Part shown: positions 2,349 through 26,124 of the stretch, piece by piece | Layout: each line of letters opens with the position of its first letter | How positions within the stretch are numbered: the first letter of the stretch is position 1 | Assembly (NCBI GenBank): GCA_001871755.1 | Contig: MNXL01000093.1 | Location: 1-39,850 of the forward strand | Length of the DNA stretch: 39,850 bases | Reading direction: 5' to 3' | Origin: Anaerolineae bacterium CG2_30_64_16 | Lineage (GTDB): Bacteria > Chloroflexota > Anaerolineae > CG2-30-64-16 | Notes under the pieces: generated by a model | Databases searched by the model: none | Seen by the model: the letters and a program-made list of their open reading frames with translations, nothing else | What the model was told of the DNA's origin: nothing | Position numbers and translations under genes: made by a program

Positions 2349-2424
2349 CCATCCACCAACTACCAATCCACCCATCTACCCATCTACCAATTTACCAATC
2401 TACCAATTTACCAACCAACTATCC
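2349..2424. repeat. tandem about 8-nt array (CTACCAAT / TTACCAAT units)
   Basis: Direct reading: catctacc catctacc aatttacc aatctacc aatttacc. It lies between convergent genes and overlaps the stop of the glycosyltransferase. Confidence 0.75.
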
Positions 2425-3558
2425 CACCTCTCCAAGCACTTCTGCCATGAGCGCGTCGTAGATCGGCGCCTGGACTGACCAATCGAAGCGGGCGACCGCG
2501 CTGCGCAGCTCCGGCGCGGCAGGGGTCGTGAATGCGGCTCTGAGCCGCGCCAGCAGCCCGGCGAAGTCATCGTACAGGCAGGCCGCGCGCGCGGCCGGCG
2601 GGAGCAGCTCTGGATAGCTGAGCCGGTTGGGGAGGATCGGCCAGCAACCGCAATAGATCGCCTCGGCGACGCCGACTCCGAAGAACTCGTGGATCGCCGT
2701 GCTGAGCACCACATCCGCGCCCCAGAGCAACCGGGCGTATGCGGCCTCGCTTTCCGCATAGCCGTAATGGACCAGCCGGTCACCCAACCGGCGCCGGGCT
2801 TGACTGAACTCGGCCGGCTCGACGCGAAAGTTCTCCCCGGCCAGCGCCACCCGGAAGGGCAGCCCTTCGCTGGCGAGGGCATAGAGCGCGCTCAGCATTG
2901 TCTCAGGAGCCTTGTCGTACTCCCAGCGTTGATTCCACAGAATCAGCGGACTTGTCTCCCTGTTTCCTTGTCTCCTTGTTTCCTTGTCTACCCACATCGG
3001 CGCATACTTGTCATAACGTCTGAGATCGCAACCAACCGCCAACACCTCGGCCCGCGCGTGGGCAATCTCCACCGATTCCAGGTGCGTGTAGTCGGGGAAG
3101 TGCTTGAGCAGGCGCGGCAGCTCGGCGAACCAGCTCTGCATGTGGAAGGCGGAGTTGAAGCAGATCCGGTCGGCGGCCAGCATGGAGAGATGCTGGATCA
3201 TGCCGTAGGTCAGGTCGCGCTGGCTGCCGGGTGGGGGCGGGTAGGTGAGCTGGTTCTCGTGCATGTAGAGCACGATCGGGACGCGTGCCAGCTCGCGGCG
3301 GGTCAGCGCCAGGAATGCAGGCAGGTTGGTCATGCTGGTGGCAAGCAAGAGGTCGGGCCGTTCGCCCGCGGCGATCCGCGCCGCGGCCTGTTCGGCCAAT
3401 TCCAGCGCGGCGCCGTGCATCCGCCATTTCCAGAAGTAGCCCTGCATGGCGAAAATCTGCACCCGGTGCTGGCTGTGCGCGGCGTAGCCCTCGGCCCAGG
3501 CGCGATGGGAGCCGGTGTGATACGGGTTCAGCAGCCAAATGGTCAGCCGGTCGGTCAT
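2419..3558 (-). CDS. GT4-like glycosyltransferase with DUF3524 N-terminal domain (GTDC1-like)
   Basis: ORF 2419..3594. The likely start is MTDRLTIWLLNPYHTGSHRAWAEGY (ATG at 3558). The WKWRMHG motif and the C-terminal GT1/GT4-type fold sequence are recognised from memory of the family. Confidence 0.75.
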   Translation of the reverse strand: MTDRLTIWLLNPYHTGSHRAWAEGYAAHSQHRVQIFAMQGYFWKWRMHGAALELAEQAAARIAAGERPDLLLATSMTNLPAFLALTRRELARVPIVLYMHENQLTYPPPPGSQRDLTYGMIQHLSMLAADRICFNSAFHMQSWFAELPRLLKHFPDYTHLESVEIAHARAEVLAVGCDLRRYDKYAPMWVDKETRRQGNRETSPLILWNQRWEYDKAPETMLSALYALASEGLPFRVALAGENFRVEPAEFSQARRRLGDRLVHYGYAESEAAYARLLWGADVVLSTAIHEFFGVGVAEAIYCGCWPILPNRLSYPELLPPAARAACLYDDFAGLLARLRAAFTTPAAPELRSAVARFDWSVQAPIYDALMAEVLGEVG

Positions 3559-3575
3559 GGGGCGATGATAACATG

Positions 3576-3636
3576 AGGGCGGCGGGATGGGCAAGAGGCG
3601 GCCGGGGGGTCATGTTGGCGTGTTGAGTGATTGACA
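3576..3636. repeat. direct repeat copy 1 flanking TA cassette 1
   Basis: agggcggcgggatgggcaagaggcggccggggggtcatgttggcg...ttgaca. About 45 nt are near-identical to 4571-4623 (2 substitutions plus an 8-nt indel). Confidence 0.8.
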
Positions 3637-3659
3637 GTTTTCGTGCCTGGACGTAAAAT
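3631..3659 (+). promoter_or_regulatory. sigma70-like promoter of TA cassette 1
   Basis: TTGACA (3631-3636), a 17-nt spacer, then TAAAAT (3654-3659). It lies 35 nt upstream of the antitoxin ATG. Confidence 0.55.
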
Positions 3660-3693
3660 GATCCCCCAGAAGGATCCATGAAGGAGGTATGGC

Positions 3694-4050
3694 ATGTGTG
3701 CGGATGAAGCATCTGAAACGATCCACGAAGCGCGACCGATCTATTCCGGGGTTGAGACGCGTTGGCTCGACGAGCCTTTGATCGTTGAGCGAGCGGGACA
3801 CCCCACTGCGGTCATCATCTCCCTGGAGGAGTACCGGCGTTTTGCCGCCTGGCGCGAAGAACGAGCAGCCCGGCGCGCCTGGGTTCTGGAGTGCCAACCG
3901 CGCAACCATATGACGGATCAGGAATGGGATGCCCAGTTCGTCACTATGGATCGTTTCGCAACGCATTTCGCGGACATCACCGACGATGAATTGGCAGATG
4001 AGTTGACACAGGCAGTGAGCGCAGTGCGTGCTGAACGAGCGCGCCGATAA
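3694..4050 (+). CDS. putative antitoxin (Phd/YefM-like N-terminus)
   Basis: AAGGAGG lies 6 nt upstream. PLIVERAGHPTAVIISLEEYRRF resembles Phd/YefM antitoxins. It sits 6 nt upstream of a PIN gene. Confidence 0.6.
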   Translation: MCADEASETIHEARPIYSGVETRWLDEPLIVERAGHPTAVIISLEEYRRFAAWREERAARRAWVLECQPRNHMTDQEWDAQFVTMDRFATHFADITDDELADELTQAVSAVRAERARR

Positions 4051-4056
4051 GCTGTC

Positions 4057-4539
4057 ATGGCTGAGAACTTCAGCGCTGCGCCCCGGCGACTGATCGTCGT
4101 GCTCGATACAAATGCCCTGGTTCGAGTGGCCCTGGCGAAAAGTCCACTTGCCAGGGTATTGCGTTGTTCGCTGGAGCGCGGCGACTTTGTCTTGCTGACG
4201 TCGGGTGACATCCTGAACGAGATTGGCCGGGTTTTGTGCTACCCCCGAATCGCCATCCATCATGCCTTGTCCGAGGCAGCCATCGAGGAGTTCGAATTGG
4301 CCGTGAGGAAAGCGGCGGTGGTTGTCCCTGGACTCTACGTTGTGCGCAAGATTGAGGCTGATCCCTCCGACGATATGTTCCTGGCTTGCGCGCTGGAAGG
4401 GGACGCTGACTATATCGTCAGCGAAGACCCACACGTGCGAGATCTCAAGACCTATCAGGGCATTCAGATCATCTCGATGGCGCAGTTTTCCGAGAAGCTG
4501 GGTCTATCTGTGGCCCGTCCAGCGTCGCCCCAAACGTGA
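4057..4539 (+). CDS. PIN-domain toxin (TIGR00305-like PIN family)
   Basis: VVLDTNALV at the N-terminus, an acidic DPSDDMFLACALEGDADYIVSEDPH block and a QGIQIISMAQF tail. Confidence 0.8.
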   Translation: MAENFSAAPRRLIVVLDTNALVRVALAKSPLARVLRCSLERGDFVLLTSGDILNEIGRVLCYPRIAIHHALSEAAIEEFELAVRKAAVVVPGLYVVRKIEADPSDDMFLACALEGDADYIVSEDPHVRDLKTYQGIQIISMAQFSEKLGLSVARPASPQT

Positions 4540-4570
4540 CTGCGCCGCCCCTCTTGAATCGCTATCCAGC

Positions 4571-4623
4571 AGGGCGGCGGGATGGGCAAGAGGCGGCCGA
4601 GGGGTCATGTGGGCGATTTGACA
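4571..4623. repeat. direct repeat copy 2 flanking TA cassette 1
   Basis: agggcggcgggatgggcaagaggcggccgaggggtcatgtgggcgatttgaca. See 3576-3636. Confidence 0.8.
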
Positions 4624-4646
4624 GACCCATCGACCTGTGCTAGACT
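4618..4646 (+). promoter_or_regulatory. candidate promoter of the ilv-leu leader
   Basis: TTGACA (4618-4623), a 17-nt spacer, then TAGACT (4641-4646). Confidence 0.4.
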
Positions 4647-4686
4647 TCGCACAATCCAGTCCCAGTCTAGCCGGGGAATGTAAAAC

Positions 4687-4782
4687 ATGTCCGATCGCTC
4701 AGGCCTGATTATTATCTCCCTTATTGCGCTCCTTGTTATTAAGGAGCCATTGCCGTTTGGGAGGGATCAGGCGGGTATCTGA
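4687..4782 (+). CDS. candidate ilv-leu attenuation leader peptide, MSDRSGLIIISLIALLVIKEPLPFGRDQAGI
   Basis: A 31-codon ORF too short for the ORF track. GGGGA lies about 10 nt upstream of the ATG. Ten of 12 consecutive codons (4705-4740) encode Leu, Ile or Val. A terminator hairpin lies about 30 nt downstream of its stop. Confidence 0.6.
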   Translation: MSDRSGLIIISLIALLVIKEPLPFGRDQAGI

Positions 4783-4810
4783 GTCAGCGAATACCCGAAG
4801 AAGCACACCA

Positions 4811-4836
4811 GGGCCTCCCACACGGGAGGCCCTTTT
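4811..4836 (+). terminator. leader terminator 1
   Basis: gggcctccc-acac-gggaggccc (9-bp GC stem) followed by TTTT. tgggagg (4758-4764), inside the leader ORF, can pair with cctccca (4814-4820) as an antiterminator. Confidence 0.6.
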
Positions 4837-4890
4837 GGTTCCAGGTTTCGTCGATAGGGGGCGCCAGGTGGGCGCCAGAATAGGGCAAGG

Positions 4891-4941
4891 ACGCCTTCTT
4901 AGCGGTCGGTGACGCGGACCGCAGAGAAGGCGTTTTTGTTT
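4891..4941 (+). terminator. leader terminator 2
   Basis: acgccttct / agaaggcgt (9 bp) plus the inner pair gcggtc / gaccgc (6 bp), followed by TTTTGTTT. It ends 30 nt before the ilvB ATG. Confidence 0.55.
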
Positions 4942-4970
4942 CAAGCGCTATCATTGGGAGGAGGGGTGCG

Positions 4971-6662: not shown

Positions 6663-6695
6663 ACCGATATTGGATTACGAGGATAGTGCCTAACC

Positions 6696-6730
6696 CCCGA
6701 AATTCTTGTTTTTTGTGCAAGGATTTTGGG
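6696..6730 (+). other. A/U-rich 13-bp hairpin just after the ilvB stop
   Basis: cccgaaattcttg (6696-6708) pairs with caaggattttggg (6718-6730), including 2 G-U pairs, with a 9-nt loop. No T-tract follows. Confidence 0.45.
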
Positions 6731-6735
6731 AATGG

Positions 6736-6774
6736 CGGCTGTCGTTTTTTTGGTTCCGGCTTGTCCGGGTTAGG
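6736..6774. repeat. 39-nt interspersed intergenic element, copy 2
   Basis: cggctgtcgtttttttggttccggcttgtccgggttagg, 38/39 identical to 1-39. It ends 18 nt before the ilvN ATG. Confidence 0.8.
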
Positions 6775-6792
6775 ACTGGAAAGGAGCGACCT

Positions 6793-8480
<1,688 letters not shown>

Positions 8481-8487
8481 GGGGAGG

Positions 8488-8612
8488 AGGGATTGGGTTT
8501 AGGGATTGGGTATTAGGGAGTAGGGATTGGGTATCGGGGATTCGGAATTGCCATTCGACGAATACCCAATACCCAATACCCAATACCCCAATACCTAATA
8601 TCTAATACCCCC
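8488..8612. repeat. imperfect palindrome built from heptamer arrays (GGGTATT/GGGATTG left arm, TACCCAA right arm)
   Basis: The right arm is tacccaa x3-5. The left arm is its approximate reverse complement (for example gggtatcggggattcg versus gggtattgggtattcg, 14/16). The centre is near 8545-8555. Confidence 0.75.
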
Positions 8613-8625
8613 AAGGGGGAAGAAT

Positions 8626-10224
8626 ATGGATGAACCTGCTGTTGTTCGTATCTTCGATACAACCCTGCGCGACGGTGAGCAGTCACCGGGCGCGACGCTG
8701 AATATCGACGAGAAACTGGAGATCGCCCGGCAGTTGGCGCGTCTGGGCGTCGACGTCATCGAGGCCGGCTTTCCGATTGCGTCACCAGGCGACTTCGAGG
8801 CGGTGCGCCGGGTGGCCGACGAGGTGGGACGGGGCGATGACGCCCCCATCATCGCCGGGTTGGCGCGGGCCAATCAGGCCGATATCGACCGGGCCTGGCA
8901 GGCCGTCAAGGGCGCGCGGCGGCCGCGCATTCACACCTTCCTGGCGACGTCTGACATCCATCTGAAGTACAAGCTCAAGATCAGCCGCGAGGAGTGCCTG
9001 GCGCGAGCGGCCGAGATGGTGGCCTATGCCCGCGGTTTGTGTGAGGACGTGGAGTTCTCGCCGGAGGACGGCGGCCGCTCAGACCCCGAGTTCCTTTATC
9101 AGGTGCTGGAGGCCGCGATCAAGGCCGGCGCGACCACTCTCAATATCCCGGACACCGTCGGCTACACTACCCCGCAGGAGTTCGGCGCGCTGATCGCCGG
9201 CATCCGTGAGCATGTGCCAGGCGCCCGGGATGTGATCCTTTCGGCGCACTGTCACAATGACCTGGGGCTGGCGACAGCTAACACCCTGGCCGCCATCGCC
9301 AACGGGGCGCGCCAGGTCGAGGTGACCGTCAACGGGATCGGCGAGCGGGCGGGCAACACGTCGTTGGAAGAGGTCGTGATGGCGTTGTACACCCGGCCCA
9401 CGGTCTACGGGCTGCGCACCCATATCGACACCACCCAGATCGCCCGAGCCAGCCGCCTGGTCAGCGCGTACACCGGCATTCCGGTGCAGCCCAACAAGGC
9501 GATCGTCGGCGCGAATGCGTTTGCGCACGAGGCCGGCATTCACCAGGATGGCGTGCTCAAGAACCCGTTGACTTACGAGATCATGCGGCCCGAGACGATC
9601 GGCATCACCGAGAGCAAGCTCGTCCTGGGCAAGCACAGCGGCCGCCACGCGTTCCAGACCAAGCTGGCCGAGTTGGGCTACGACCTGAACCCGGAGGACA
9701 TGAACCGCGTGTTCGAGCGCTTCAAGGACCTGTGCGACAAGAAGAAGGTCGTCAGCGATCCTGACATCGAGGCGATCATCAACGACGAGGTGTACCAGCC
9801 GGTGGAGTTGTGGCGGCTCGAGCACGTCCAGGTCTCTTGCGGCACCAGCATGCGCCCCACGGCTACGGTGACGTTGCGCGGCCCGGATGGCATCGTGCGC
9901 GAGGACGCCGCGGTCGGCGCCGGGCCGGTGGACTCGGTCTACATGGCCATCAACCGGATCGTCCAGGCGCCCAACGTGCTCACCGAGTTCAGCATCAACG
10001 CGGTGACCGAAGGGATCGACGCGGTGGGTGAGGTGACGATTCGCATCGAGGGGACCAACGGCGCGCACGGCCGGCACTATGCCCTGAACCCGCAGTTCGG
10101 CCTGCGTCAGCGCACCTACAGCGGCCACGGCGCAGACACGGATATCATCGTGGCGTCCGCAAAGGCGTACATGAGCGCGTTGAACAAGATGCTGAGTGCG
10201 CGCAAAGAGGAAGTCGGCGGCTAG
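8626..10224 (+). CDS. leuA: 2-isopropylmalate synthase
   Basis: 532 aa. [33 protein letters not shown], and a C-terminal LeuA dimerisation/regulatory domain. Confidence 0.92.
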
Positions 10225-10631
10225 GAAGCGGATTCCAGGAGGCGCAAGAACCGGCCAAGCTTGATGATTTGGATGCCTGCGTAGCTGCCCAAATCGAGAA
10301 GGTCATCGTCCTGTGAGACGACGTATTTGCAGTGACCGTCCAGGGCGCACTCGATGAACTTGTTGTCGTCTGGGTCACGCTCGACGACGTTAAGCAGGCT
10401 GGTTACCTGGATGACATCGCAGAGCTCGACCAGGCGCAGCCACCACTCGTACGTGGACTCGTCGGGAAGGTCGAAGTAGGCGCGCAAAGTCCTGACGATC
10501 TCATGCAGGATCGGGTGAGAGGCAACCGCAATGTAGTTGCCCGCCTCTGCGCGAAGATAGAGTTGGTGAGCGGCGCTGCGGCGGAGGATGGCGCCGATCC
10601 AGACGTTGGTGTCAAGGACAGCGCGGGTCAA
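10221..10631 (-). CDS. PIN-domain toxin (paralogue of 4057-4539)
   Basis: [49 protein letters not shown]. It has a TTG start that overlaps the antitoxin stop (TTGA). Its stop shares CTAG with the leuA stop. Confidence 0.8.
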
Positions 10632-11065
10632 GACCTCCTCCGATCGTGGGCGACGCGCCTCGTGCGGTGCACGGCTTCATCGACGATCTGGTCGAATTGC
10701 TCATCGGTCAAAGTGTCGTAGTCCAGGTCGCGTTCCTTGAGCCATGCGCGCATATGCGTTTCCGTGCGGCGCTCCAGATCGTAGATCGCCGCATCGGGAC
10801 CAAGCCGAGCATAGCGTCTCTCGACCTCTTCCACAGCCAGGGCGGCGCGGGCGAGCTCAGCCGGCGAAGCGCCATCTTGGGCGAGCATGTCGAGATATGC
10901 CTGGCGCAATTCGCCAATGGGGGGTTTGGTCCGCAGCGTCTTAGCGTACCTCACAACCAGCCAGACGTCACGCGGGGAGAGGGCCTTGATGGCCGATGTC
11001 AGTTCTTGTTCGAGCATTTTGTCCATGAATTCCTGCTCCCTGAGGCGTTGGTCTCTGGAGGTCAT
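10628..11065 (-). CDS. putative antitoxin of the antisense PIN cassette
   Basis: The ATG at 11065 ([13 protein letters not shown]...) lies 18-25 nt downstream of a consensus promoter. The gene is translationally coupled to the PIN gene. Its C-terminal motif is shared with antitoxin 3694-4050. Confidence 0.6.
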
Positions 11066-11089
11066 TGAACCCTTCACGGGCTCAAACCG

Positions 11090-11118
11090 ATTATAGGCCA
11101 GATGTTCGGGCCTGTCAA
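11090..11118 (-). promoter_or_regulatory. consensus sigma70 promoter of the antisense TA cassette
   Basis: The minus strand reads TTGACA, a 17-nt spacer (ggcccgaacatctggcc), then TATAAT. It lies between the antitoxin ATG and the leuC RBS. Confidence 0.65.
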
Positions 11119-11139
11119 TCCCGTTTTTACAGGAGGCGT

Positions 11140-12552: not shown

Positions 12553-12561
12553 AGAGCGGGT

Positions 12562-12633
12562 TGCGTACTGCGTACTGCGTGAAGGCACTGGCTACAAGGC
12601 GTGAAATCCGCAATTCGCAATCCGAAATCCGCA
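12562..12633. repeat. heptamer arrays (TGCGTAC x3; AATCCGC/AATTCGC x4)
   Basis: Direct reading of the leuC-leuD spacer. Confidence 0.75.
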
Positions 12634-12649
12634 GTGTGGGGAGAGCGAC

Positions 12650-13258: not shown

Positions 13259-13268
13259 ACTGGGAGCA

Positions 13269-13390
13269 GGGGGCAAGGGGCAAAGGCAAGGGGCAAGGGG
13301 CGAAGAGCAAGGGCAAAAGGCTTGGGGCAGATCGGCAAATCGGAAATCGCAAATCCGAAATCCGAAATCCGAAATCGCAAATCGGAAATC
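13269..13390. repeat. about 17 tandem heptamers (GGGGCAA family grading into GAAATCC/GCAAATC family)
   Basis: ggggcaa ggggcaa aggcaa ggggcaa ggggcga ... atccgaa atccgaa atccgaa atcgcaa atcggaa. This is the same family as the 12605-12633 array. Confidence 0.8.
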
Positions 13391-13405
13391 TCCAGGAGGT
13401 TAGAG

Positions 13406-13591
13406 ATGCAACGGGAGAGCATGCAGCAGGCGAACGGGCAGCCCCGCGCCGCGGAGAGCGCGGACGGGCAGCGTGCCAACGGGCAACGGGAGAACGCGCA
13501 ACGGGCTACCAGCCAGGCGGAGCGGGCCGTGATGCATCCGGATTACTCCGATCCTGAGTGGCGCTACTATCACGGCGCGTGGCACAGTTAG
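13406..13591 (+). CDS. small hydrophilic hypothetical protein (61 aa)
   Basis: AGGAGG lies 6 nt upstream of the ATG at 13406. Third codon positions are strongly G/C-biased. The sequence has ANGQ-type internal repeats and an aromatic tail, DPEWRYYHGAWHS. I recognise no family. Confidence 0.35.
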   Translation: MQRESMQQANGQPRAAESADGQRANGQRENAQRATSQAERAVMHPDYSDPEWRYYHGAWHS

Positions 13592-13766
13592 GCGGACGAG
13601 ACTTTATGCCTGTATCACGATTTCATCGGAGGGTGAACTGGGCGACCGATGTGCTCGCGCGCGCGAGTGCTGTCGCCCAGGCGATCGGCGGCTCCGGGGA
13701 CTGATCGCGTTCTGTCGCCGGCCGGAAACCGGCCGCACAAACCCTACTTCAAATCAGGAGCTACCA

Positions 13767-15356: not shown

Positions 15357-15444
15357 ACTTCCGGGGTGTCTCAGTCATCGTTTTGCGCTCTATGGCACAG
15401 CCCTCCCTACCTGGCAGGCCCGCTTCGCAGGATTGCCCGCGCCG

Positions 15445-15708
15445 CTGCACTTCGGGGAGGCTTGGCACAACCGCCGGATCGTCAGCCCGCTGAACGCGGC
15501 GCCCCCGGTTGCCGCCATAGGAGTCGAGCCACCTTGAGTTATATCAGTACAGCCCATGCCCCTGGTCCCAGCGTTGACCGGTGAAGTACATCCTGAGCCA
15601 AGCCTGTCCTGAGCCCCGCCGAAGGGCCTGTCCTGAGCCCCGCCGAAGGGTCGAAGGGCGATAATTCGTCTTCCGGCTGCCGGGGTTGTAGCGCGTGTTG
15701 CCGTAGAG
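15445..15708 (-). pseudogene. possible degenerate RHS/YD repeat-associated core remnant
   Basis: Minus-strand translation gives LYGNTRYNPGSRKTNYR ... MYFTGQRWDQGHGLY(stop)YNSRWLDSYGGNRGRRVQRADDPAVVP. This resembles the FTGQxxD..GLYYYxARxYD..GRFxxxD core end, but it is interrupted by a stop and by repeats. Confidence 0.3.
15603..15650. repeat. perfect 24-nt tandem duplication (cctgtcctgagccccgccgaaggg x2)
   Basis: Direct reading. Related partial units (cctgagc...cgaaggg) occur at 15592-15602, 15651-15659 and 15713-15732. Confidence 0.85.
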
Positions 15709-15828
15709 CTTGCCCTGAGCTTGTCGAAGGGGCATGTAACCGAGGCGGCTGCATACTTCTACTGGCGGCCCACTGATGGTGGAGTTGCCGGTCGCCTCAT
15801 GTGGCTCGTGAGGCGACCGGCGCCACAC

Positions 15829-16101
15829 CTAACCGCGCTCGTCGATGGTTATCTTCGTGATATCGTCCGGCCAGGGCTTCAAGCCTTGGAGTCTCTCTAC
15901 GTACCGATCCGAGCCGCGCGTTGTGGTCCAGGAAAAGCGCGTGATGAGATCCTCAGGCGGTCCCGGCTGAACGTAGATGATAGCTGCAATCGCTTGGTTC
16001 ACAGTCATACCAGACGCCTTGCGGGTGATGTGGGCCGTGACCATGAGCCCGCGCTCCGGATACCAGAGTTCCAAATAGGTCCAGATGGCTTCTGGAAGCA
16101 T
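15829..16101 (-). CDS. hypothetical protein (90 aa)
   Basis: Intact ORF, no family recognised. It sits between the RHS-like remnant and the murQ fragment. Confidence 0.35.
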
Positions 16102-16109
16102 GGCATAAT

Positions 16110-16226
16110 AACCGCTGGTGCTACCCTGGCATCCTCCTCGTTGATGAGCGTCACAATCTCCAGCGATGACAGGGTATCAATCGCTGCCGTCCGTGGATTC
16201 CGCGCCTCTGTGGCCGGAACACCTTC
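16110..16226 (-). pseudogene. murQ: N-terminal fragment of N-acetylmuramic acid 6-phosphate etherase
   Basis: Minus-strand translation gives [36 protein letters not shown], which matches the MurQ N-terminus (TE.RN..T..ID..STLE....IN.ED..VA.AV). There is no start codon, and the SIS domain is absent. Confidence 0.6.
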
Positions 16227-16230
16227 TTTC

Positions 16231-16270
16231 CCAATTCACCAATCTACCAATCTACCAACCTCCCAACTCC
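16231..16270. repeat. about 8-nt tandem array (CAATCTAC units)
   Basis: caattcac caatctac caatctac caacctcc caactcc. It overlaps the last codons of the BadF-type kinase. Confidence 0.7.
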
Positions 16271-17181: not shown

Positions 17182-17192
17182 TGTCGCTGACC

Positions 17193-17684
17193 TTATGCTG
17201 ATTCTTCGATCATAAGCTGTTGGAAGTTGCGGCCAGGCGTGATCTTGCCCAGCACGACGCGCTGCCCTGCTCCTGTACAGCGGGGCAGGTTGCCCGGCCG
17301 GCCATGGATCGTTTCGTAGGCCAGCACGGCAAAGGCCACCGCCTCTTTGGCGTCGCTGGAAAGGCCGACAGCTTCATGGCTGGTGATGGTGGCAGGGGCC
17401 AGACGCTCGCACAGCATAGCCACCAGGGTCGGATTGCTGGCCCCGCCGCCGCCCCGGATCACCTCGTCGGGCATGTGGGGCAGGAAGCGGCGGTAGGCGT
17501 CGGCGATGGAGGCAGCAGTGAAGGCGGTGAGGGTGGCGACGACGTCCTCGCCGCCCAGTCCCCACGCCCTGGCCCGTGCCCAGACCTCGGCGCCGAAGAC
17601 CGCGCCGAACTGCTCGCGGCCCGTCGTTTTGGGCGGAGATTGGGCCAGGTAGGGGTGGGCCAGCAGCTCTTGGATCGAAAGCAT
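17193..17684 (-). pseudogene. anmK: C-terminal half of anhydro-N-acetylmuramic acid kinase (5'-truncated)
   Basis: LLAHPYLAQSPPKTTGREQFG ... GGGASNPTL ... GRPGNLPRCTGA align to the last ~165 aa of AnmK. The ~200-aa N-terminal half is absent, and a repeat array begins at 17696. Confidence 0.65.
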
Positions 17685-17695
17685 GAGTACTCGCG

Positions 17696-17783
17696 TTGGG
17701 ACGTTGGTAGTTTGGTAGGTTGTGTAAATTGGGGTGGATGCCCCCATTCCCCAATCCCCAATATGCCAATTCCCAATTTACCA
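17696..17783. repeat. imperfect palindrome of TTGGTAG / CCCCAAT-type units
   Basis: The left arm is ttgggacgttggtagtttggtaggttgtgtaaattgggg. The right arm is ccccattccccaatccccaatatgccaattcccaatttaccag. Confidence 0.7.
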
Positions 17784-17837
17784 GTTGACTTGGGCTCGGC
17801 TTCTTGTTATACTATCCTGGAAAGTGAGGTGAGCGCC

Positions 17838-18560
17838 ATGACCGTCCAGATGGTAGAAGTTGTGTCGGCGCCTCCCCGTTCCCGTGCCGGGGAGACTGGG
17901 GTGGAAACGTTTCCCCCCCAAAAGCAAAAAATGACCTACCAGGAATTCCTGGCCTGGGCCGACGAGGATACCCTGGCGGAATGGGTAGATGGGAAGGTGA
18001 TTATGAATTCGCCGGCATCGAGGCGTCATCAGGAAATCAGCAACTTTCTGAATACGCTGTTGACGTTTTATGTCAGTATTCGCGACCTGGGTCGCGTGTT
18101 GTTTGCGCCTTTCCAGGTCAAGCTTGGTCCTGACCTGCCAGGGCGCGAGCCGGACCTGCTATTCGTCGCCAGTGAGCACCTGGACCGGCTAAAAGAGACC
18201 CACCTCGACGGGCCGGCCGACCTGATCGTCGAGATCGTCTCGCAGGAGAGCCAGCAGCGTGATCGCGGCGAAAAGTTCTACGAGTACGAGGCCGCCGGCG
18301 TGAGCGAGTACTGGCTGATCGATCCCCAGCGTCGCCAGGCCGAGTTCTATCAACTGGGGGAAGGGGGCTTTTATCGCCCCGTTCCCCCCGACGCCGAGGG
18401 AGTCTACCGCAGTGCTGTCCTGCCCGGCTTTTGGCTGGACATGGCCTGGCTGTGGCAGACTCCCCTGCCCACGCCGCTCGAAACGCTGCACTTGTTAAGC
18501 GAGATGCTGGGCGGCTCACCCGGCTCCGAGACCGTGCAGGCCTTTTTGAAACAGGTCTGA
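17838..18560 (+). CDS. Uma2-family endonuclease (DUF820)
   Basis: MTYQEFLAW, EPDLLFV and PADLIVEIVSQESQQRDRGEKFYEYEAAGVSEYWLIDPQ. The start may instead be the ATG at 17931. The upstream part of ORF 17220.. is a shadow of anmK. Confidence 0.8.
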   Translation: MTVQMVEVVSAPPRSRAGETGVETFPPQKQKMTYQEFLAWADEDTLAEWVDGKVIMNSPASRRHQEISNFLNTLLTFYVSIRDLGRVLFAPFQVKLGPDLPGREPDLLFVASEHLDRLKETHLDGPADLIVEIVSQESQQRDRGEKFYEYEAAGVSEYWLIDPQRRQAEFYQLGEGGFYRPVPPDAEGVYRSAVLPGFWLDMAWLWQTPLPTPLETLHLLSEMLGGSPGSETVQAFLKQV

Positions 18561-18566
18561 TAGGGT

Positions 18567-18588
18567 ATCCCCAATCCCCAATCCCCAT

Positions 18589-18592
<4 letters not shown>
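18567..18592. repeat. CCCCAAT heptamer array
   Basis: atccccaatccccaatccccattcacc. It overlaps the stop of the oxidoreductase gene. Confidence 0.7.
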
Positions 18593-19860
<1,268 letters not shown>

Positions 19861-19881
19861 GGTCTTCCTTGCTCCTTCCGT

Positions 19882-19967
19882 GGGTTGGTAGGTTGGTAGA
19901 TTGGTAGGTTGGTAGATTGGTAAATTGGGGGGAGTCACCCAATCTACCAATTCCCGATTTCCCAACT
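19882..19967. repeat. inverted 8-nt arrays (GGTTGGTA/GATTGGTA x6 facing CCAATCTA units)
   Basis: attggg/cccaat plus attggtag-type pairing gives at least 14 bp of stem. It lies between the GH20 stop and the oxidoreductase start. Confidence 0.75.
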
Positions 19968-22015
19968 CACATATCGGGCCAGTTCTGCCACAGGGTGCGA
20001 TAGTCGTCTGGATCATAGGTAGACAGGTTGGCATCCACCGGCTGGCCGGCCAGGAGCGCCTTGCGTTGTTCCAGCAACCAGGCGGTGGCGGCCTTGTAGC
20101 GGGTGCGCAGGTTGGCAAAGTAGCCCAGCGACACGTGGATCTCGCTGCGGCGGGCGCGGGCCATCCACAGCGCCTCGAGCTCGGCGCGCAGGTCCTCCAG
20201 CTTGCTGTCCAGGCCGCGGATGGCCAGGTAATGCTCGTACAGCCGCGCCGCATTCTCCGCGACCGGCTCCGGCTGGGCGGCAAAGGCATTCAGGTCGGCG
20301 CGGACCGCCTGCGATAGCGCCGTCTTGCGGCCAGCGTAGGCCGTCAGCCGGGCCGCGGAAGCCATCTCCAGCAGCGTCAGCGCGCGCGGGTGGTCGGGGG
20401 CCAGGACATCGCAGGTTGCCGCCGCCGACTCGGCCAGGGCTTGCATCTCGGCCAGTGTCTCGGCAGGTAATGCGCCCTCGCCGGCCACGGTCGTGCCGGT
20501 GAGCGGCTCGTCGAACAGGGCCAGGACGGTGTGTGAACGGTTGCGGTTGTGGACGCCGGGCAGGTCATTGGTGCGGGCCAGTTGGTGGAGCGCTTCCATG
20601 ATGGCCTCGTGGTCCTCGCCAAAAAAGAGCGGGCCAAAGGCAGCGTCGAAATCCTCGTCGCTCGTCGTGCCGCCGGTCCAGCCCTGGGCTGCGCCAAAGA
20701 GGTAGCCGTGCCAGCTCAGGCCAAAGTGCTGGTAGTGGCCATAGTCGCCCCAGTCGGTGTTGAGCAGGCCCTCGGCGCCAGCGGCCACCCCATCGCGCAC
20801 AAAGTTGCGGATGTTGACGTTGGCCCCATAGAGCCGGGGGAAGATGCTGTTCCACGAGCCGACGCCGGGGCAGACCCAGAATTTACGCCCCGCCTCGGCG
20901 AAAATCCTGGCCGTGGGGTACTCGTCGGCGGGGGCATAGTGCCAGTCGAGCAGCGTCACGTCGTCGGGCACCTCATCGATGAGTTCTGGATAGTGGAGCA
21001 GGATGTCGCCCCAGACCTGGGTGCGGCGCCCGAGCCGGGCGGCCAGCTCGCGCACGCGCAGGATGTGGTTGAGGTAGACGCGCCCTACGCCGATTTCGTC
21101 GGCCTGTCTCTTGGTCGCGCCCTTGCCCAGGTCGTAGGTCTCGTCGCAGCCGACGTTGAACGTGGTCGAGGAAAAGGCAGGCAGCATGTCACCAAAGAGC
21201 TCGGCCAGCAGCGTGTAGGTTTCCTCGAAGGCCGAGCTGAGCGTCCAGAGCATGTCGGTCTCGGCCAGGTGCTGGTACTCGGGCAGCATCAGGAGACTGC
21301 GCAGGTGACCGAAAGAATTCAGATTCGGCATCAGCTCGATGTGACGCTCGCGGCAGAAAGCGTCGAGCTCCAGAATGTCCTCGCTGCCGAGGGAGCCGCA
21401 GCCGGCGCCGATCTTGGGATGGCGGGGAAACTGGAAGGTATGCTCGGTGTAGAGCTGCAGCACATTGACCTTGGAGTGGCTCAGCTCCTCGGCCAGGGTC
21501 TTGAGCGTGGTCAGGGTCGGCACCTTGCGCCGCGAGATGTCGAGCATCAGGCCGCGATAGGCCAGGGTGGGCCAGTCGCGGATTTTCAGTGTGGGCAGGG
21601 TGGCGCCCTCCAGCCGTATCAACTGGCGCAGGGTCTGGACGGCGTAGAACAGGCCGGCCGGCGCGTCGGCGTAGAGCACGATGCGCCCCCGCTGGATGGT
21701 CAAAGTGTAGGCCTGGCCCGCCACGGCCTCCGGCGCGTCGAGGGTGACCGGTTCCAGGCCAAAGGCAGCAGCCTGTTCCTGCCCACAGACGAGCAGAACA
21801 ACGTTGTCGGCTCGCGGCGGCGCGTAGGCTTTGACGATAGCCAGGAGTAGCCCTGTCTTCTGCCACACTTCCTCTTGGAGCTGGCGGGCGGCAAAAAAGG
21901 CTCCATCCCCAGCCTGGGCCGGGATCAAGATGAGCGAGTCGGCGTCCAGGGAGTACAGCCCCTTGACGAACATCAACTCTTTCGGTTCGGGAAGCAAATG
22001 CAGCGTCATTTTCAA
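19967..22015 (-). CDS. GH20 beta-N-acetylhexosaminidase-like protein
   Basis: 682 aa. IRDWPTLAYRGLMLDISR, NVLQLYTEHTF and the catalytic-pair context FNVGCDETYDLG. No signal peptide. Confidence 0.8.
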   Translation of the reverse strand: MKMTLHLLPEPKELMFVKGLYSLDADSLILIPAQAGDGAFFAARQLQEEVWQKTGLLLAIVKAYAPPRADNVVLLVCGQEQAAAFGLEPVTLDAPEAVAGQAYTLTIQRGRIVLYADAPAGLFYAVQTLRQLIRLEGATLPTLKIRDWPTLAYRGLMLDISRRKVPTLTTLKTLAEELSHSKVNVLQLYTEHTFQFPRHPKIGAGCGSLGSEDILELDAFCRERHIELMPNLNSFGHLRSLLMLPEYQHLAETDMLWTLSSAFEETYTLLAELFGDMLPAFSSTTFNVGCDETYDLGKGATKRQADEIGVGRVYLNHILRVRELAARLGRRTQVWGDILLHYPELIDEVPDDVTLLDWHYAPADEYPTARIFAEAGRKFWVCPGVGSWNSIFPRLYGANVNIRNFVRDGVAAGAEGLLNTDWGDYGHYQHFGLSWHGYLFGAAQGWTGGTTSDEDFDAAFGPLFFGEDHEAIMEALHQLARTNDLPGVHNRNRSHTVLALFDEPLTGTTVAGEGALPAETLAEMQALAESAAATCDVLAPDHPRALTLLEMASAARLTAYAGRKTALSQAVRADLNAFAAQPEPVAENAARLYEHYLAIRGLDSKLEDLRAELEALWMARARRSEIHVSLGYFANLRTRYKAATAWLLEQRKALLAGQPVDANLSTYDPDDYRTLWQNWPDM

Positions 22016-22027
22016 CCTCCTCTATGG

Positions 22028-23266: not shown

Positions 23267-24438
23267 CACGAATCGTTCTCCGCCTTGTCCCGGTAGAGCA
23301 AGTATGCCTCCCGCCGCTGGTTGAATTCGGCCAAATCTTTGCTCCAACTTTGGACGATCTGTTCGACCGGTTCTCCCGCCTCCAGGGCGTGGCGGACCCG
23401 GTCGCTGCCGATGAGCCGGTCAAAGTGGGACGCTCGCCAGGCGAACTGGTCCGGGTACAGGTCATGGAGAGTGGCGACGAGGTGCAGGCCCAGCGCCACG
23501 GGGCGCAGAGTGTCTCGATCGGTGACGTGGAGTTGAAGGCCGCCGCACATCTCCCTGGCGAATTTGTCCGAGCAGGGCGCAAAACGTGTCGCCCGCGCCC
23601 GGACGCCGGGCAGCGCCAGCGCGTTGAGCCGCTTCGCCAGGGCGCGACCGTCGATCCAGGGCGCGCCGCAGACCTCGAAGGGCAGCGCCGTGCCGCGTCC
23701 CTCCGACACGTTGGTCCCCTCCAGCCGGCACAGCCCCGGATACAACGTCGCCGTCGAGGTCGATGTACCCATCGCATGGGGCATGGCCGGCGAAGTGGGC
23801 ACCCAGAGCAGCCCCGTCTCGTCGAACCACATGCCTCGCCGCCAGCCGCACATGGCCACGACGGTCAGGTCGGCACCCAGGGCGTGCTCGCCGTTCATCC
23901 AGCGCGCCATCTCACCCAGGGTCAGCCCGTGGCGGATGGGTACGGACGCGACGCCCACGAACGACTCGAAATCGGGGAGCACCGGCGGCCCTTCCAGTGT
24001 CCGGCCGTTGATGGGATTGGGCCGGTCCAGGACGATGACGGGCTTGCCGGCCTGGGCCGCGCCCTGGAGCACGTAAAAGAGGGTACTCACAAAGGTGTAA
24101 AAGCGCACGCCCACGTCTTGCATATCAAAGACCAGGACATCCACTTCGGTCAGCATGTCGGGCGTCGGCTCTTGCACCGCGCCATAGAGGCTGTAGACAG
24201 GCAGCCCGGTGTGAGGGTGGACGGCGTCGCCCACCGGCGCGCCATCGGCGGCGGCGCCATCCGGGCCATGCTCCGGGCCAAAGAGCGCGGTGAGGCGCAC
24301 GCCGGCCCGGAGCAGGGCGTCCACCGCCCCGGTGAGGTCCGGCAGGACCGCCGCCGGGTGCGTGACCAAGCCGACTCGTTTGCCCTGGAGCAGGTGGAGT
24401 TGTTCGTGGATCAGCCGATCCAACCCTGTCTGAATCAT
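23266..24438 (-). CDS. namZ: DUF1343 protein (exo-beta-N-acetylmuramidase NamZ family)
   Basis: 390 aa. GKRVGLVTHPAAV, LFGPEHG, DVLVFDMQDVGVRFYTF and LDRPNPING. Confidence 0.8.
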   Translation of the reverse strand: MIQTGLDRLIHEQLHLLQGKRVGLVTHPAAVLPDLTGAVDALLRAGVRLTALFGPEHGPDGAAADGAPVGDAVHPHTGLPVYSLYGAVQEPTPDMLTEVDVLVFDMQDVGVRFYTFVSTLFYVLQGAAQAGKPVIVLDRPNPINGRTLEGPPVLPDFESFVGVASVPIRHGLTLGEMARWMNGEHALGADLTVVAMCGWRRGMWFDETGLLWVPTSPAMPHAMGTSTSTATLYPGLCRLEGTNVSEGRGTALPFEVCGAPWIDGRALAKRLNALALPGVRARATRFAPCSDKFAREMCGGLQLHVTDRDTLRPVALGLHLVATLHDLYPDQFAWRASHFDRLIGSDRVRHALEAGEPVEQIVQSWSKDLAEFNQRREAYLLYRDKAENDS

Positions 24439-24450
24439 GATCTCGCCAAC

Positions 24451-26052
24451 CTACCACAACGCACCGGCTGTCGGAACCATCCGCTCGAACTGCACGCCGG
24501 GCAGCCGGTAGCGGTTGCCGGGCGTGGTGGCCAGGCCACCCCGGTAGAAGAGCTGCGTCGAGCCGCCGCCGTCCAGGTTGATGGCGTCCACGGCGCCGGC
24601 CTCGGCCAGCAGTTCGGCCAGCTCCAGCAGCGTCGCGCCCGCGCTGTCGCTCTCGAGGCGATGGGCGCCCCGCTCCGTGCCGGGCACGGCGACGACGAGT
24701 AGTTGCCCCTCGGCATCCACGCCCAGGCCGATGCGGCCGGCGCGAGTGCGGTCGGTGTCCATCGGGTAATCGGTGGGCACCACGCCCACGGGGGTGTTCT
24801 CACCCTGTTCCAGCGGCGCGGTTCGGCCTTGCTCACCACGGGTCGGCCAGAACTCCTCGTCCGCCAACGAGTCTGCTGTGAGGGCGATCTGTCCACCTTT
24901 CAACAGCAACGGCCCGGCCTGGATTGCCTGCTGCACGCCCCGCAAAACCTCCTGGGCAAAGCCGTATTGCACGCGCGGCAGGCCCCCGTCTGAGATCGCA
25001 CCGTGTGGCGGCACGCCGGGGGAGAAAGAGAGCACCAGGCCATTCTGCGGGATCTCCAGCTCGCCGCCCACCTTGCGACTCACGATCCGCGTATCGACGA
25101 CGGTGTATTCGGCGCGGCCCGGTGCAGCCGGTGTCCGCCGCTGCGGCCGGCCGTAGCTCGCCAGGCCAAGGGTGCGAGTGTAAACGGCCACCCTGGCATC
25201 CCCGTCCGGGTTGAGGCGGAAAGGCAACCCCGGCAACTCACTCCCCTCCGGCGCCAGCAGCGCTCCATTCGGCAGTTGTACGGTCATGGCGAGCATCGAA
25301 ATGTGCCCGGCTTGCCAGCAACCGTCTGGCGTTTGGTAAAAGGCCGCGCGGCGGTGCAACGGTGGTCGCAGGATCACCCCGTCGCGGACGTAGAGGTTGT
25401 AGGCTTCCCCCAACGCCGAGTGGTGGCTATCAAAATCGTCGTGCTCCAGCAAGAAAAAGGCAGCGTTGAAAGCGATACGCGGGCGCTCGCGCCACACGAA
25501 CTCGCGCACAAAACCGAGGCGTCCCACCGGCAGCAGGTCCCGCTGCACGTCGAACCCTTCGAAATCGGTTGGTGTCGAAAGGCGGCGACCCAAGGCGCCG
25601 CCCAGGTAGAGCCGGTCCTCGTGGGCCAACAGAGCCAGCACCGCGCGGGCGCGATCGCGCCAGACCGGCTCGTCGTCCGGGACGGCGGCCTGCCAGTCGG
25701 CGCCATCGAAGTGCAGCCAGCCGCGGGCCAGGAGCATACGCAGGGTGTAGGTGAGCAGCGAATTGGCGCTGTAGAGCCGCTCGCCGCGCCCAGTGTGCGG
25801 ATCCACGCCGGGAAAGACCTGCTCGACGCCGCGGTCCTGCTCCAACCGGGCAAAGGCGACGCTGCGCGGATCGTTCACGCCCCGCGTCTGGGCCTTGACG
25901 GCGCGCAGGTGGGCCACTTCGGCCAGCTTGACAGCCCGGTCCTGCTGGTCGAATTCGGCAAAAGCGAACCCCGCCGGCGGGAAGCGCAGAAACGCCACGT
26001 CGGAGAAAGTGTCGTTATCCCAAAAGCGGCGGGCGTGGGTTAGATGTATCAA
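24451..26052 (-). CDS. phosphodiester glycosidase (NAGPA/DUF2233) family protein with a large N-terminal region
   Basis: The C-terminal AGPLLLKGG ... RIGLGVDAEGQLLVVAV ... GATLLELAELLAEAGAVDAINLDGGGSTQL is the NAGPA signature. It has an apparent TTG start and no signal peptide. Confidence 0.7.
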   Translation of the reverse strand: MIHLTHARRFWDNDTFSDVAFLRFPPAGFAFAEFDQQDRAVKLAEVAHLRAVKAQTRGVNDPRSVAFARLEQDRGVEQVFPGVDPHTGRGERLYSANSLLTYTLRMLLARGWLHFDGADWQAAVPDDEPVWRDRARAVLALLAHEDRLYLGGALGRRLSTPTDFEGFDVQRDLLPVGRLGFVREFVWRERPRIAFNAAFFLLEHDDFDSHHSALGEAYNLYVRDGVILRPPLHRRAAFYQTPDGCWQAGHISMLAMTVQLPNGALLAPEGSELPGLPFRLNPDGDARVAVYTRTLGLASYGRPQRRTPAAPGRAEYTVVDTRIVSRKVGGELEIPQNGLVLSFSPGVPPHGAISDGGLPRVQYGFAQEVLRGVQQAIQAGPLLLKGGQIALTADSLADEEFWPTRGEQGRTAPLEQGENTPVGVVPTDYPMDTDRTRAGRIGLGVDAEGQLLVVAVPGTERGAHRLESDSAGATLLELAELLAEAGAVDAINLDGGGSTQLFYRGGLATTPGNRYRLPGVQFERMVPTAGALW

Positions 26053-26079
26053 TACCGGCCACCCTCGCGATTGAACATC

Positions 26080-26124
26080 CTAATCCCCAATTCCCAATCC
26101 CCAATCCCCAACCTGCCAACTCAC
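26080..26124. repeat. CCCCAAT/TCCCAAT heptamer array
   Basis: taatcccc aattccc aatcccc aatcccc aacctgcc. It overlaps the stop of the fusion gene. Confidence 0.7.

Follow-up and report, generated by a model that had tools for sequence, protein, structure and literature searches.

Short tandem arrays in the spacers of an Anaerolineae contig

The window considered here is a whole stretch of 39,850 nucleotides, contig MNXL01000093.1 (positions 1-39,850) of Anaerolineae bacterium CG2_30_64_16, and the features in question are arrays of tandem 7- and 8-nt units that lie mostly between its genes. The window has a guanine-plus-cytosine (GC) content of 63%. Our gene model, built from GC statistics at third codon positions (GC3) and Pfam, begins with a histidine kinase, a zf-CSD protein and a QTMAN-like glycosyltransferase, continues with a toxin-antitoxin pair, and then enters an ilvB-ilvN-ilvC-leuA-(PIN/antitoxin)-leuC-leuD-small open reading frame (ORF)-cimA cluster. 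A cell-wall sugar recycling cluster follows on the minus strand (BadF-type kinase, AnmK fragment, GFO/IDH, GH20, MFS, NamZ, NAGPA, NTP-transferase/PGM, MlrC and CutC), and a peptide ABC transporter comes last. The host is an uncultured Anaerolineae-type member of the Chloroflexota from groundwater metagenomes. By LeuD, its nearest species representatives are Chloroflexota/Thermoflexales/Anaerolineae metagenome-assembled genomes (MAGs) at 73-74% identity. Contigs identical or nearly identical to the window are present in Joint Genome Institute (JGI) and European Nucleotide Archive (ENA) metagenomes (JGI 3300008011, 3300025787 and 3300014060; ENA ERZ272933xx), and a sister species (LeuD 87-89% identity) includes the NCBI MAG 'Chloroflexi bacterium HGW-Chloroflexi' (GCA_002842085.1).

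A sequence-only reading of the window had listed arrays of period 7 or 8 at many gene boundaries. Tandem Repeats Finder (TRF) detects every one of them, and the units were confirmed by direct reading. Counting every array of period 7 or 8 with 2.5 or more copies gives 16 for the window, compared with a mean of 0.65 and a maximum of 3 in 100 dinucleotide-preserving shuffles. Intergenic DNA makes up 11.7% of the window and contains 490 of the 611 array bases (80%). Nine spacers carry arrays, in several of which repeats take up 50-78% of the length; the earlier count of at least ten is lowered by one, because the tenth array (2951-2989) sits inside an ORF. The same reading had given five genes repeat-encoded C-termini. 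Arrays do abut the stop codons at 2419, 16252, 18589, 19967 and 26121, but the TRF-defined array reaches into just one of these genes, the BadF-type ATPase (stop at 16252), where it covers the stop and the final ~4 codons; the other four genes end 0-10 nt before theirs.

The period is 8 in five arrays (2351-2414, 16238-16266, 17695-17722, 19883-19928 and the one within an ORF, 2951-2989) and 7 at 8488-8612, 12562-12633, 13264-13390, 17742-17778, 18567-18587 and 26077-26111. Family A is the 8-mer (C/T)TACCAAT (equivalent to TTGGTAGA), which occurs at five sites. Family B comprises the 7-mers CCCCAAT and AATACCC/GGGTATT, at 17742, 18567, 26077 and in both arms at 8488-8612, and units of the CCCCAAT type are counted at four sites. 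The remaining units are AAATCCG (family C, two sites, 12605 and 13331), GGGGCAA (family D, 13264) and TGCGTAC (family E, 12562). Families A and B have a CCAAT core in common, and an arm of each pairs with the other in the hairpin at 17696-17783.

The first array (2349-2418; TRF 2351-2414, period 8, 8.1 copies) consists of about eight family-A units, (C/T)TACCAAT, and takes up the whole 82-nt gap between two convergent genes, zf-CSD (+) and the glycosyltransferase (-), the second of which has its TAG stop (2419-2421) immediately next to the array. Inside the glycosyltransferase gene, TRF finds the in-frame 8-mer array at 2951-2989 (-), of VDKETRRQ type and with an effective period of 24 nt; it falls in the linker between the QTMAN_N and GT1 domains (Pfam, residues 19-188 and 205-333). 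The ilvC-leuA spacer carries two arms on the plus strand, a G-rich 5' arm of GGGATT/GGGTATT heptamers capable of forming a G-quadruplex (G4) at 8488-8550 and a 3' arm of seven AATACCC copies at 8561-8612 (TRF 8561-8611), which ends 13 nt before the leuA start (ribosome-binding site, RBS, AAGGGGGAAG). In the leuC-leuD spacer lie 2.7 copies of TGCGTAC (12562-12580, +) and four of AATCCGC, a family-C unit (12605-12633, +). Directly 3' of the leuD stop codon come seven copies of GGGGCAA (13264-13313, +) and then 8.4 copies of AAATC(C/G)G (family C, 13331-13390, +), which end 16 nt before the small ORF at 13407-13591.

Further along, 3.6 copies of the family-A unit CCAATCTA (16231-16270, -; TRF 16238-16266) overlap the BadF-type ATPase stop codon (16252-16254). 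Between the truncated anmK (-) and a Uma2-family gene (+), a G-rich 5' arm of GTTGGTAG units (17695-17735; TRF 17695-17722) is followed by a C-rich 3' arm of CCCCAAT/CCCAATT units (17742-17783; TRF 17742-17778), and three CCCCAAT copies (18567-18592; TRF 18567-18587) fill the 28-nt spacer between the convergent Uma2 (+) and GFO/IDH (-) genes. The GH20-GFO spacer, read on the minus strand, has a CCAATCTA/CCCGATTT arm at 19936-19966, directly after the GH20 stop codon (19967-19969) in the mRNA sense, and 5.5 copies of (G/A)TTGGTAG at 19883-19930 (TRF 19883-19928) as the 3' arm in the minus-strand mRNA. The last array, 4.3 copies of CCCCAAT (26077-26124, -; TRF 26077-26111; GGGGAUU in the mRNA), comes directly after the NTP-transferase/PGM stop codon (26121-26123) and contains a G4 motif at 26085-26109.

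Three spacers with inverted arrays had been expected to fold into long hairpins, and secondary-structure prediction agrees. The predicted energy is -59.4 kcal/mol for the ilvC-leuA spacer (8481-8625; z = -3.8, a value that none of 200 shuffles equalled) and -50.2 kcal/mol for the divergent AnmK/Uma2 spacer (17688-17837, + strand), and the GH20-GFO spacer (19860-19966, -) contains a 14-bp perfect stem. Arrays in a single orientation are nearly structure-free, as in the spacer at 2337-2418, whose C-rich strand reaches -0.1 kcal/mol. The ilvC-leuA and GH20-GFO hairpins are inverted arrays between cistrons, and the AnmK/Uma2 hairpin (17696-17783) extends exactly as far as the -35 hexamer in the promoter-like site of Uma2 (17785-17813). 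None of the 29 terminator-like sites overlaps an array; the array hairpins lead into an RBS and not a T run, and so lack the layout of intrinsic terminators. At gathering thresholds Rfam gave no match in the arrays, its sole match being a tRNA at 1749-1819.

Arrays of this kind extend well beyond the window. One metagenome scan with the family-A pattern CCAAYCTACCAAYCTACC matched at least 120 stretches, and the matches listed include ~50 mutually independent high-GC contigs with a tetranucleotide signature near that of the window and no overlap with it. An important caveat is that these contigs were chosen for carrying an array, that their genes were called with a crude GC3-based caller and that they are taxonomically mixed. 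Non-coding DNA makes up 20% of 323 kb of these contigs but holds 83% of their array bases. Arrays lie a median of 9 nt past the upstream stop codon, which many overlap, and a median of 38 nt before the next start; they occupy 50% of same-strand spacers (of at least 25 nt), versus 33% of convergent and 32% of divergent ones. One contig from the sample series of the window's strains (L109) has an inverted pair of heptamer arrays at nearly every junction of an operon. Array placement is thus strongly non-random in the window and in this larger set, unlike that of randomly scattered low-complexity sequence.

Tetranucleotide similarity had to be rejected as a proxy for taxon. One contig of the set, L164 (Ga0207428_10000384; r = 0.88 to the window), belongs to the Vicinamibacterales, and the 49-contig context sample is therefore taxonomically mixed. 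Because L164 carries arrays of TTGGTAGA (6.8 copies, 830-883), CCCCAAT (4.4 copies, 3584-3614) and CAGGGCA (7.7 copies, 8666-8719), the window's units occur in a second phylum, the Acidobacteriota. Another TTGGTAGA-bearing contig, L160, is from the Anaerolineae. Across 80 leuD loci of species representatives, the number of arrays per 10 kb is 0.53 in Bacteroidota, 0.48 in Chloroflexota, 0.09 in Acidobacteriota and 0.08 in Myxococcota, compared with 3.0 in the window. The density that had been called striking is indeed high, but the general class is already documented, heptanucleotide long simple-sequence repeats (SSRs) being over-represented in scattered phyla (PMC4679880, PMC4692102).

Array turnover between strains and species

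Eleven contigs from the window species (L081-L090 and L095) are 99.0-100% identical to the window, L095 spanning 20.6 kb with 63 single-nucleotide polymorphisms (SNPs). Among them we find no array indel and a single array SNP (13343), versus dozens of SNPs in the flanking genes. Eight contigs cover the array at 13331-13390, and five or six cover the 5' arm of the ilvC-leuA hairpin, which is invariant. On the within-species scale the arrays are not hypervariable.

Length differences do appear outside the window species: a comparison of copy number finds no variation among the window's own strain contigs but whole-unit differences within the sister clade and between species. Between two sister-clade contigs, L093 and L091, there are 8 SNPs over 8.8 kb and just two indels, of +7 nt (TCAGGGG) and +8 nt (TCAGCGAG). 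Each is exactly one unit, and they lie inside the two longest and purest arrays, which is the signature of slippage at a rate that depends on copy number and purity.

The window and the sister species share 88% LeuD identity and a conserved gene order, and their orthologous spacers keep the unit family while the copy number changes. The three TGCGTAC copies of the window correspond to eight copies of TGCGTA(C/G/A) in L091 and L093, and four AATCCGC copies correspond to three. In place of seven GGGGCAA units the sister species has the variant GGGGCAG, homogenised over 8.6 copies in L091 and 9.4 in L093, one 7-nt unit apart. At the orthologue of the 2349-2418 site, eight copies of CTACCAAT are matched by five in L094, and where the window has 8.4 copies of AAATCSG the sister species has 9-10 of TCAGCGA. 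Arrays are also gained or lost between the two species: CGTATTG is absent from the ilvB-ilvN spacer of the window and present there in 4.6 copies in the sister species. The array within the glycosyltransferase ORF measures 63 nt in L094 and 39 in the window, a difference of +24 nt, or +8 aa, that stays in frame. In L091 this gene is broken directly after the array, through either a rearrangement or an assembly chimera.

The ilvC-leuA hairpin is present in both species, with a difference at its core. Its asymmetric centre (~50 nt, comprising the loop and an inner stem) in one species is the exact reverse complement of that in the other. Such a flip is the expected product of recombination between the inverted arms, and arm-to-arm recombination would allow the arms to remain complementary without selection on RNA.

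Two spacers of the sister species also contain a palindromic element resembling a miniature inverted-repeat transposable element (MITE), GTCATTGCGAGGAG...CGACGAAGCAATC...GATTGCTTCGC...CTCGCAATGAC, at ~10745-10890 and ~1925-2040 of L091 and also in L094 and L093; it is absent from the orthologous spacers of the window.

The arrays have practical consequences as well. Many strain contigs (the ends of L082, L083, L084, L089 and L090) stop at or just past the leuD-proximal arrays, where L094, from the NCBI MAG, has an N-gap (10554-10628), which shows that short-read assemblies break at the arrays. ORF callers are misled as well and read through the stop-free strand of an array; the ORF at 18589-20289 is over-extended in this way by ~140 codons.

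Hairpin polarity and the origin of the arrays

Because the arm order of a palindrome reads alike from either strand, it is a true property of the element. Among the matches listed and in the window, every inverted pair of family A is ordered 5'-(TTGGTAGA)n-centre-(TCTACCAA)n-3'. The counts are 14:0 for strict runs, 25:0 for TRF-defined pairs and 27:0 once the window's own pairs are included, from 22 independent loci in several Anaerolineae lineages, and the binomial probability of 14:0 alone is 6e-5. The polarity of family A is robust, and the centres of the 14 hairpins are all different. The array (TTGGTAGA)n has TAG in all three frames, and its complement is open in all three. In 13 pairs of other families the stop-richer arm is 5' in seven and 3' in two (both marginal), with four lacking stops; in the six pairs with one stop-free arm the stop-bearing arm always comes first (CGGTAAT, CGTAACC/TAACCCG three times, TTGGAGA and AGACCAT). 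Beyond family A, this stop-first rule draws on about four independent families and is only suggestive.

Two simpler rules were rejected. A G-rich arm does not always come first, as all three CGTAACC pairs are opposite by G/C content. Fold-back priming of the better self-folding strand accounts for TTGGTAGA, CGGTAAT, TTGGAGA and GGGTATT, whereas CGTAACC and AGACCAT do not conform to it. Candidate sources of the polarity are descent from dispersed elements, a mechanism that generates the pairs directionally, and selection for stopping translation from both sides. That inverted arrays are a distinct directional class of element and not accidental palindromes is a tentative proposal, and we would sooner expect it to fail than to hold.

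The account we favor, and consider probable, is that the arrays are long SSRs of the type known as short tandemly repeated repetitive (STRR) sequences, driven by slippage, homogenised by recombination and tolerated only where a spacer is free of constraint. Replication slippage would amplify and trim a 7- or 8-nt unit in whole-unit steps, and unit variants would spread within an array. Arrays would persist only in unconstrained sequence. Such a stretch begins at the upstream stop codon, with which arrays are often in contact, and gives way to an RBS or promoter ~20-40 nt ahead of the next start. About one-third of sites would have gained an inverted second array to form a long imperfect palindrome, whose arms may recombine, stay complementary and flip the centre. 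Any effect on expression is probably generic, with longer intercistronic spacers and, for the hairpin forms, a stable stem-loop added between cistrons.

Several observations weigh against this account. The unit TTGGTAGA seeds arrays at five sites in the window and at dozens of independent loci, in other Anaerolineae and on a Vicinamibacterales contig, a recurrence that purely local slippage does not explain. Undirected inverted duplication in situ should give both polarities, whereas one polarity is seen in 27 of 27 pairs. The near-invariance of the arrays in the eleven window-species contigs, with flanking genes carrying dozens of SNPs, could reflect constraint; alternatively, the arrays may be short and impure, with minority length variants hidden by metagenome consensus assembly. 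Hairpin potential is also kept across species at ilvC-leuA.

The strongest competitor holds that the arrays, chiefly the hairpin pairs, are functional cis-elements of mRNA, intercistronic stem-loops that would shield upstream segments from 3' exonucleases, provide RNase processing sites or adjust translational coupling. The excess occupancy of same-strand spacers (one-half, versus about one-third of convergent or divergent ones) would fit such a role, although it comes from array-selected contigs and a crude gene caller. So would the operon on L109, the absence of array indels among strains, and the ilvC-leuA hairpin, which folds far better than its shuffles and is kept in the sister species; for STRR hairpins, transcript stability or translational coupling has been suggested, never shown (PMC2670836). 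If the fold of the sense transcript were selected, however, arm mismatches should be G.U-compatible on the transcribed strand, and transition mismatches on the sense strand comprise 36 G.U and 28 A.C (p = 0.38), so RNA-level selection on the hairpins is unsupported. Single arrays are not only structure-free but also occur in either orientation. In same-strand spacers the stop-rich strand is sense in 15 and antisense in 17 (8:9 for family A), and 28 are G-rich and 20 C-rich in the sense strand. This lack of orientation counts against a strand-specific RNA signal, and it leaves unsupported both avoidance of C-rich sense arrays as Rho loading sites and birth of arrays from the upstream stop codon. 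Sister species also differ in units and copy numbers, with arrays gained and lost, and DNA recombination alone can maintain arm complementarity. The mismatch, orientation, Rfam and terminator tests gave no evidence of a sequence- or strand-specific RNA signal, and we regard a functional mRNA element as possible but on balance unlikely.

Less likely still is that the inverted arrays are copies of dispersed, possibly mobile palindromes, resembling MITEs or the paired repetitive extragenic palindromes (REP) called REPINs, or products of a directional enzyme, with single arrays as decayed half-elements. This idea would account for a polarity fixed per unit family, G-first for TTGGTAGA and the reverse by G/C content for CGTAACC, and for the presence of TTGGTAGA at many loci in two phyla. 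It also predicts the 50:50 orientation of single arrays, as either arm could be lost. The distance to the upstream stop codon tends to be shorter for stop-rich singles (median 7 versus 28 nt), but the trend is not significant (p = 0.10). REP/REPIN elements and MITEs are likewise intergenic, often at 3' ends or between cistrons, palindromic, hairpin-forming and present in many copies per genome. However, they conserve their full-length sequence, whereas here the arms are tandem arrays of variable units and the centres are unique. All hairpin centres differ, yet that of ilvC-leuA is perfectly conserved between sister species, so centres evolve too slowly to erase a common origin quickly. We saw neither target-site duplications nor terminal motifs, and found no transposase or REP-associated tyrosine transposase (RAYT) gene beside the arrays, although no systematic search was made and the coverage was 40 kb of genome. 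Arrays flank a single candidate nuclease, Uma2, which shows no link to them elsewhere: tblastn with this protein over all loci collected matched only L095, from the same species, and one weak unrelated sequence.

Action through non-B DNA or RNA, with GGGGATT, GGGTATT and GGGGCAA arrays as G4s (or C-rich i-motifs) that modulate transcription or translation, is very improbable. The window contains 11 canonical G4 motifs (at least four G3+ runs, loops of 1-7 nt), and arrays account for five of them, including those at 8489-8510, 8516-8539, 8565-8589 (-) and 26085-26109 (-), and the units are near-identical to the Nostoc GGGGA(T/C)T and Xanthomonas GGGAATC repeats whose G4 potential was studied by Rehm et al. 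2015 (PMC4692102). Families A, C and E yield no such motif, however; TTGGTAGA, the most frequent unit, and TGCGTAC and AAATCCG have no G3 runs, and the GGGGCAA array (13264-13313) has a 9-nt loop. In the hairpin spacers the G-rich arm is predicted to be paired. These are motif scans with predicted folding, and they limit G4s, as a general explanation, to the GGG-containing families.

Last, contingency loci, in which a change in unit number switches genes by a shift of frame or promoter spacing, are suggested by the unit-step indels, the one 8-mer array within an ORF and the one hairpin that ends at a -35 hexamer, but this idea is already largely refuted: nearly all arrays occupy the interval from a stop codon to the following RBS, where length changes shift no frame, the in-ORF array differs between species by 24 nt in frame, the 11 strain contigs show no length polymorphism, making phase variation unlikely, and the genes concerned are housekeeping genes (ilv/leu and cell-wall recycling).

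Neighboring features, known repeats and significance

The window contains several other features. The histidine kinase and zf-CSD genes are separated by the tRNA gene at 1749-1819 (-; Rfam, 63 bits), which has a promoter-like site upstream (1857-1829) and a terminator-like hairpin downstream (1742-1711). Upstream of ilvB, an ilv-leu attenuator of classic layout (4618-4841) has a promoter-like site (4618-4646), a 31-codon leader peptide rich in Ile, Leu and Val (MSDRSGLIIISLIALLVIKEPLPFGRDQAGI*, 4687-4782) and, between the leader peptide and ilvB, a strong terminator hairpin with a T run (4810-4833). The leader is nearly base-for-base the same in the sister species, and leader-peptide attenuation in a member of the Chloroflexota may merit recording. 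A 39-nt sequence, CGGCTGTCGT(C/T)TTTTTGGTTCCGGCTTGTCCGGGTTAGG, occurs twice with 97% identity, at 1-39 upstream of the histidine kinase gene and at 6736-6774 just upstream of ilvN.

The toxin-antitoxin cassette, a 118-aa ORF (3694-4050) and a PIN_3 protein (4057-4539) within 3576-4621, lies between two direct repeats of 51 nt that are 92% identical (3576-3626 and 4571-4621). In the sister species the 51-nt sequence is single and the cassette is missing, and the cassette looks like an insertion with target duplication. The small ORF 13407-13591, between leuD and cimA, is conserved; gene calls in the strain and sister contigs make it 61 aa long. Pfam gives no match for it, and TRF detects an NGQR-type repeat of period ~7 within it (13464-13506). 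After cimA, 895 nt (15357-16251) hold no convincing gene, only a 90-aa ORF called in strain contigs (15829-16101, -) and a perfect 24-nt repeat in two copies, GCCTGTCCTGAGCCCCGCCGAAGG (15602-15650). The sister species has an AAA-ATPase/PDDEXK gene, leuB and ilvD there instead, which marks this stretch as a rearrangement breakpoint. Of anmK (17193-18560 region) only the C-terminal half remains (163-164 aa, Pfam profile positions 218-366 of 367). The adjacent Uma2-family nuclease gene is antisense within the minus-strand operon and has CCCCAAT arrays on both sides and its own promoter-like site, an arrangement suggesting that anmK was cut short by an insertion.

STRR and heptanucleotide repeats date in the literature from 1990 and serve for strain fingerprinting; to our knowledge, neither their origin nor their function is understood. 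The cyanobacterial STRR sequences were reportedly described by Mazel et al. in 1990, with the STRR1 consensus CCCCA(A/G)T. The three to four CCCCAAT copies at 17742-17762, 18567-18587 and 26082-26111 are identical to this consensus, and the other unit families are not known to match any of STRR1-3. We also know of no report of strict hairpin polarity or centre inversion for STRRs.

In cyanobacteria the STRRs are 7-bp tandem repeats in non-coding DNA, of unknown function, some of which form hairpins between cistrons, as in hupS-hupL (PMC2670836). The likeness proposed by the sequence-only reading holds for the architecture: tandem non-coding heptamers, several unit families per genome each dispersed over many sites, CCCCAAT itself, and inverted arrangements that give hairpins in intercistronic spacers (hupS-hupL there, ilvC-leuA and GH20-GFO here). 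It does not hold for the taxonomic setting, since the host is a high-GC (63%) Anaerolineae-type member of the Chloroflexota and not a heterocystous cyanobacterium. The commonest family here also has an 8-nt unit, so that membership fails partly on unit length as well, and the arrays are STRR-like and not STRRs in the strict sense.

The arrays do belong to the class of long SSRs with 5-11-nt units (Mrazek, Guo & Shah 2007), given their excess over shuffles and their whole-unit steps in copy number. As that work is represented in later accounts, such repeats are longer than expected by chance, dominated by heptanucleotides, intergenic and patchy in phylogeny, with slippage as the proposed origin (PMC4679880, PMC4692102). 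Chloroflexota are not among the repeat-rich genomes cited in those accounts, and the window has ~3 arrays per 10 kb, with repeats forming up to ~75% of a spacer. The Xanthomonas and Nostoc heptamers are intergenic too, include inverted pairs that form stem-loops, and vary extensively in length and sequence between close relatives at the same intergenic positions (PMC4692102); unlike theirs, the G4 potential here covers only a minority of arrays. The TAACTGA direct repeats of marine Beggiatoaceae and some Cyanobacteria and Bacteroidetes (MacGregor 2015, PMC4679880) resemble the present arrays in that one heptamer occupies many intergenic sites and is shared across distant phyla with no evident transfer mechanism. 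They lie mostly within a few nt upstream of start codons in one orientation (PMC4679880), whereas the arrays here hug the upstream stop codon and single arrays are unoriented. Proteins with CSD or S1 domains would be candidate binders of such arrays, given that CspB binds heptamers (PMC4679880). Within the literature searched, we found nothing on such arrays in Chloroflexota or Anaerolineae. The arrays are an already known type of sequence found in a host new for it, and they do not amount to a new type of system.

The locus extends the STRR/heptanucleotide phenomenon to an uncultured, high-GC member of the Chloroflexota, at very high density, and places the same units in Chloroflexota and Acidobacteria, with CCCCAAT in Cyanobacteria. 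Together, the strain and sister-species contigs provide a calibrated picture of array evolution. The arrays are stable at ~0.3% divergence, with one-unit indels in the longest and purest of them, and at ~12% protein divergence they show turnover of copy number and unit, gain and loss, and inversion of a hairpin centre. If the inverted arrays do form a distinct directional class, they would point either to a dedicated generating or dispersing process, such as a sequence-specific nuclease, polymerase or recombinase, or to selection for structured spacers that are 'translation-proof' in both directions. The 35-year-old STRR puzzle would then gain a concrete rule, the stop-bearing arm first, which can be tested in any repeat-rich genome, cyanobacteria included, and which could separate neutral, selected and enzyme-driven origins.

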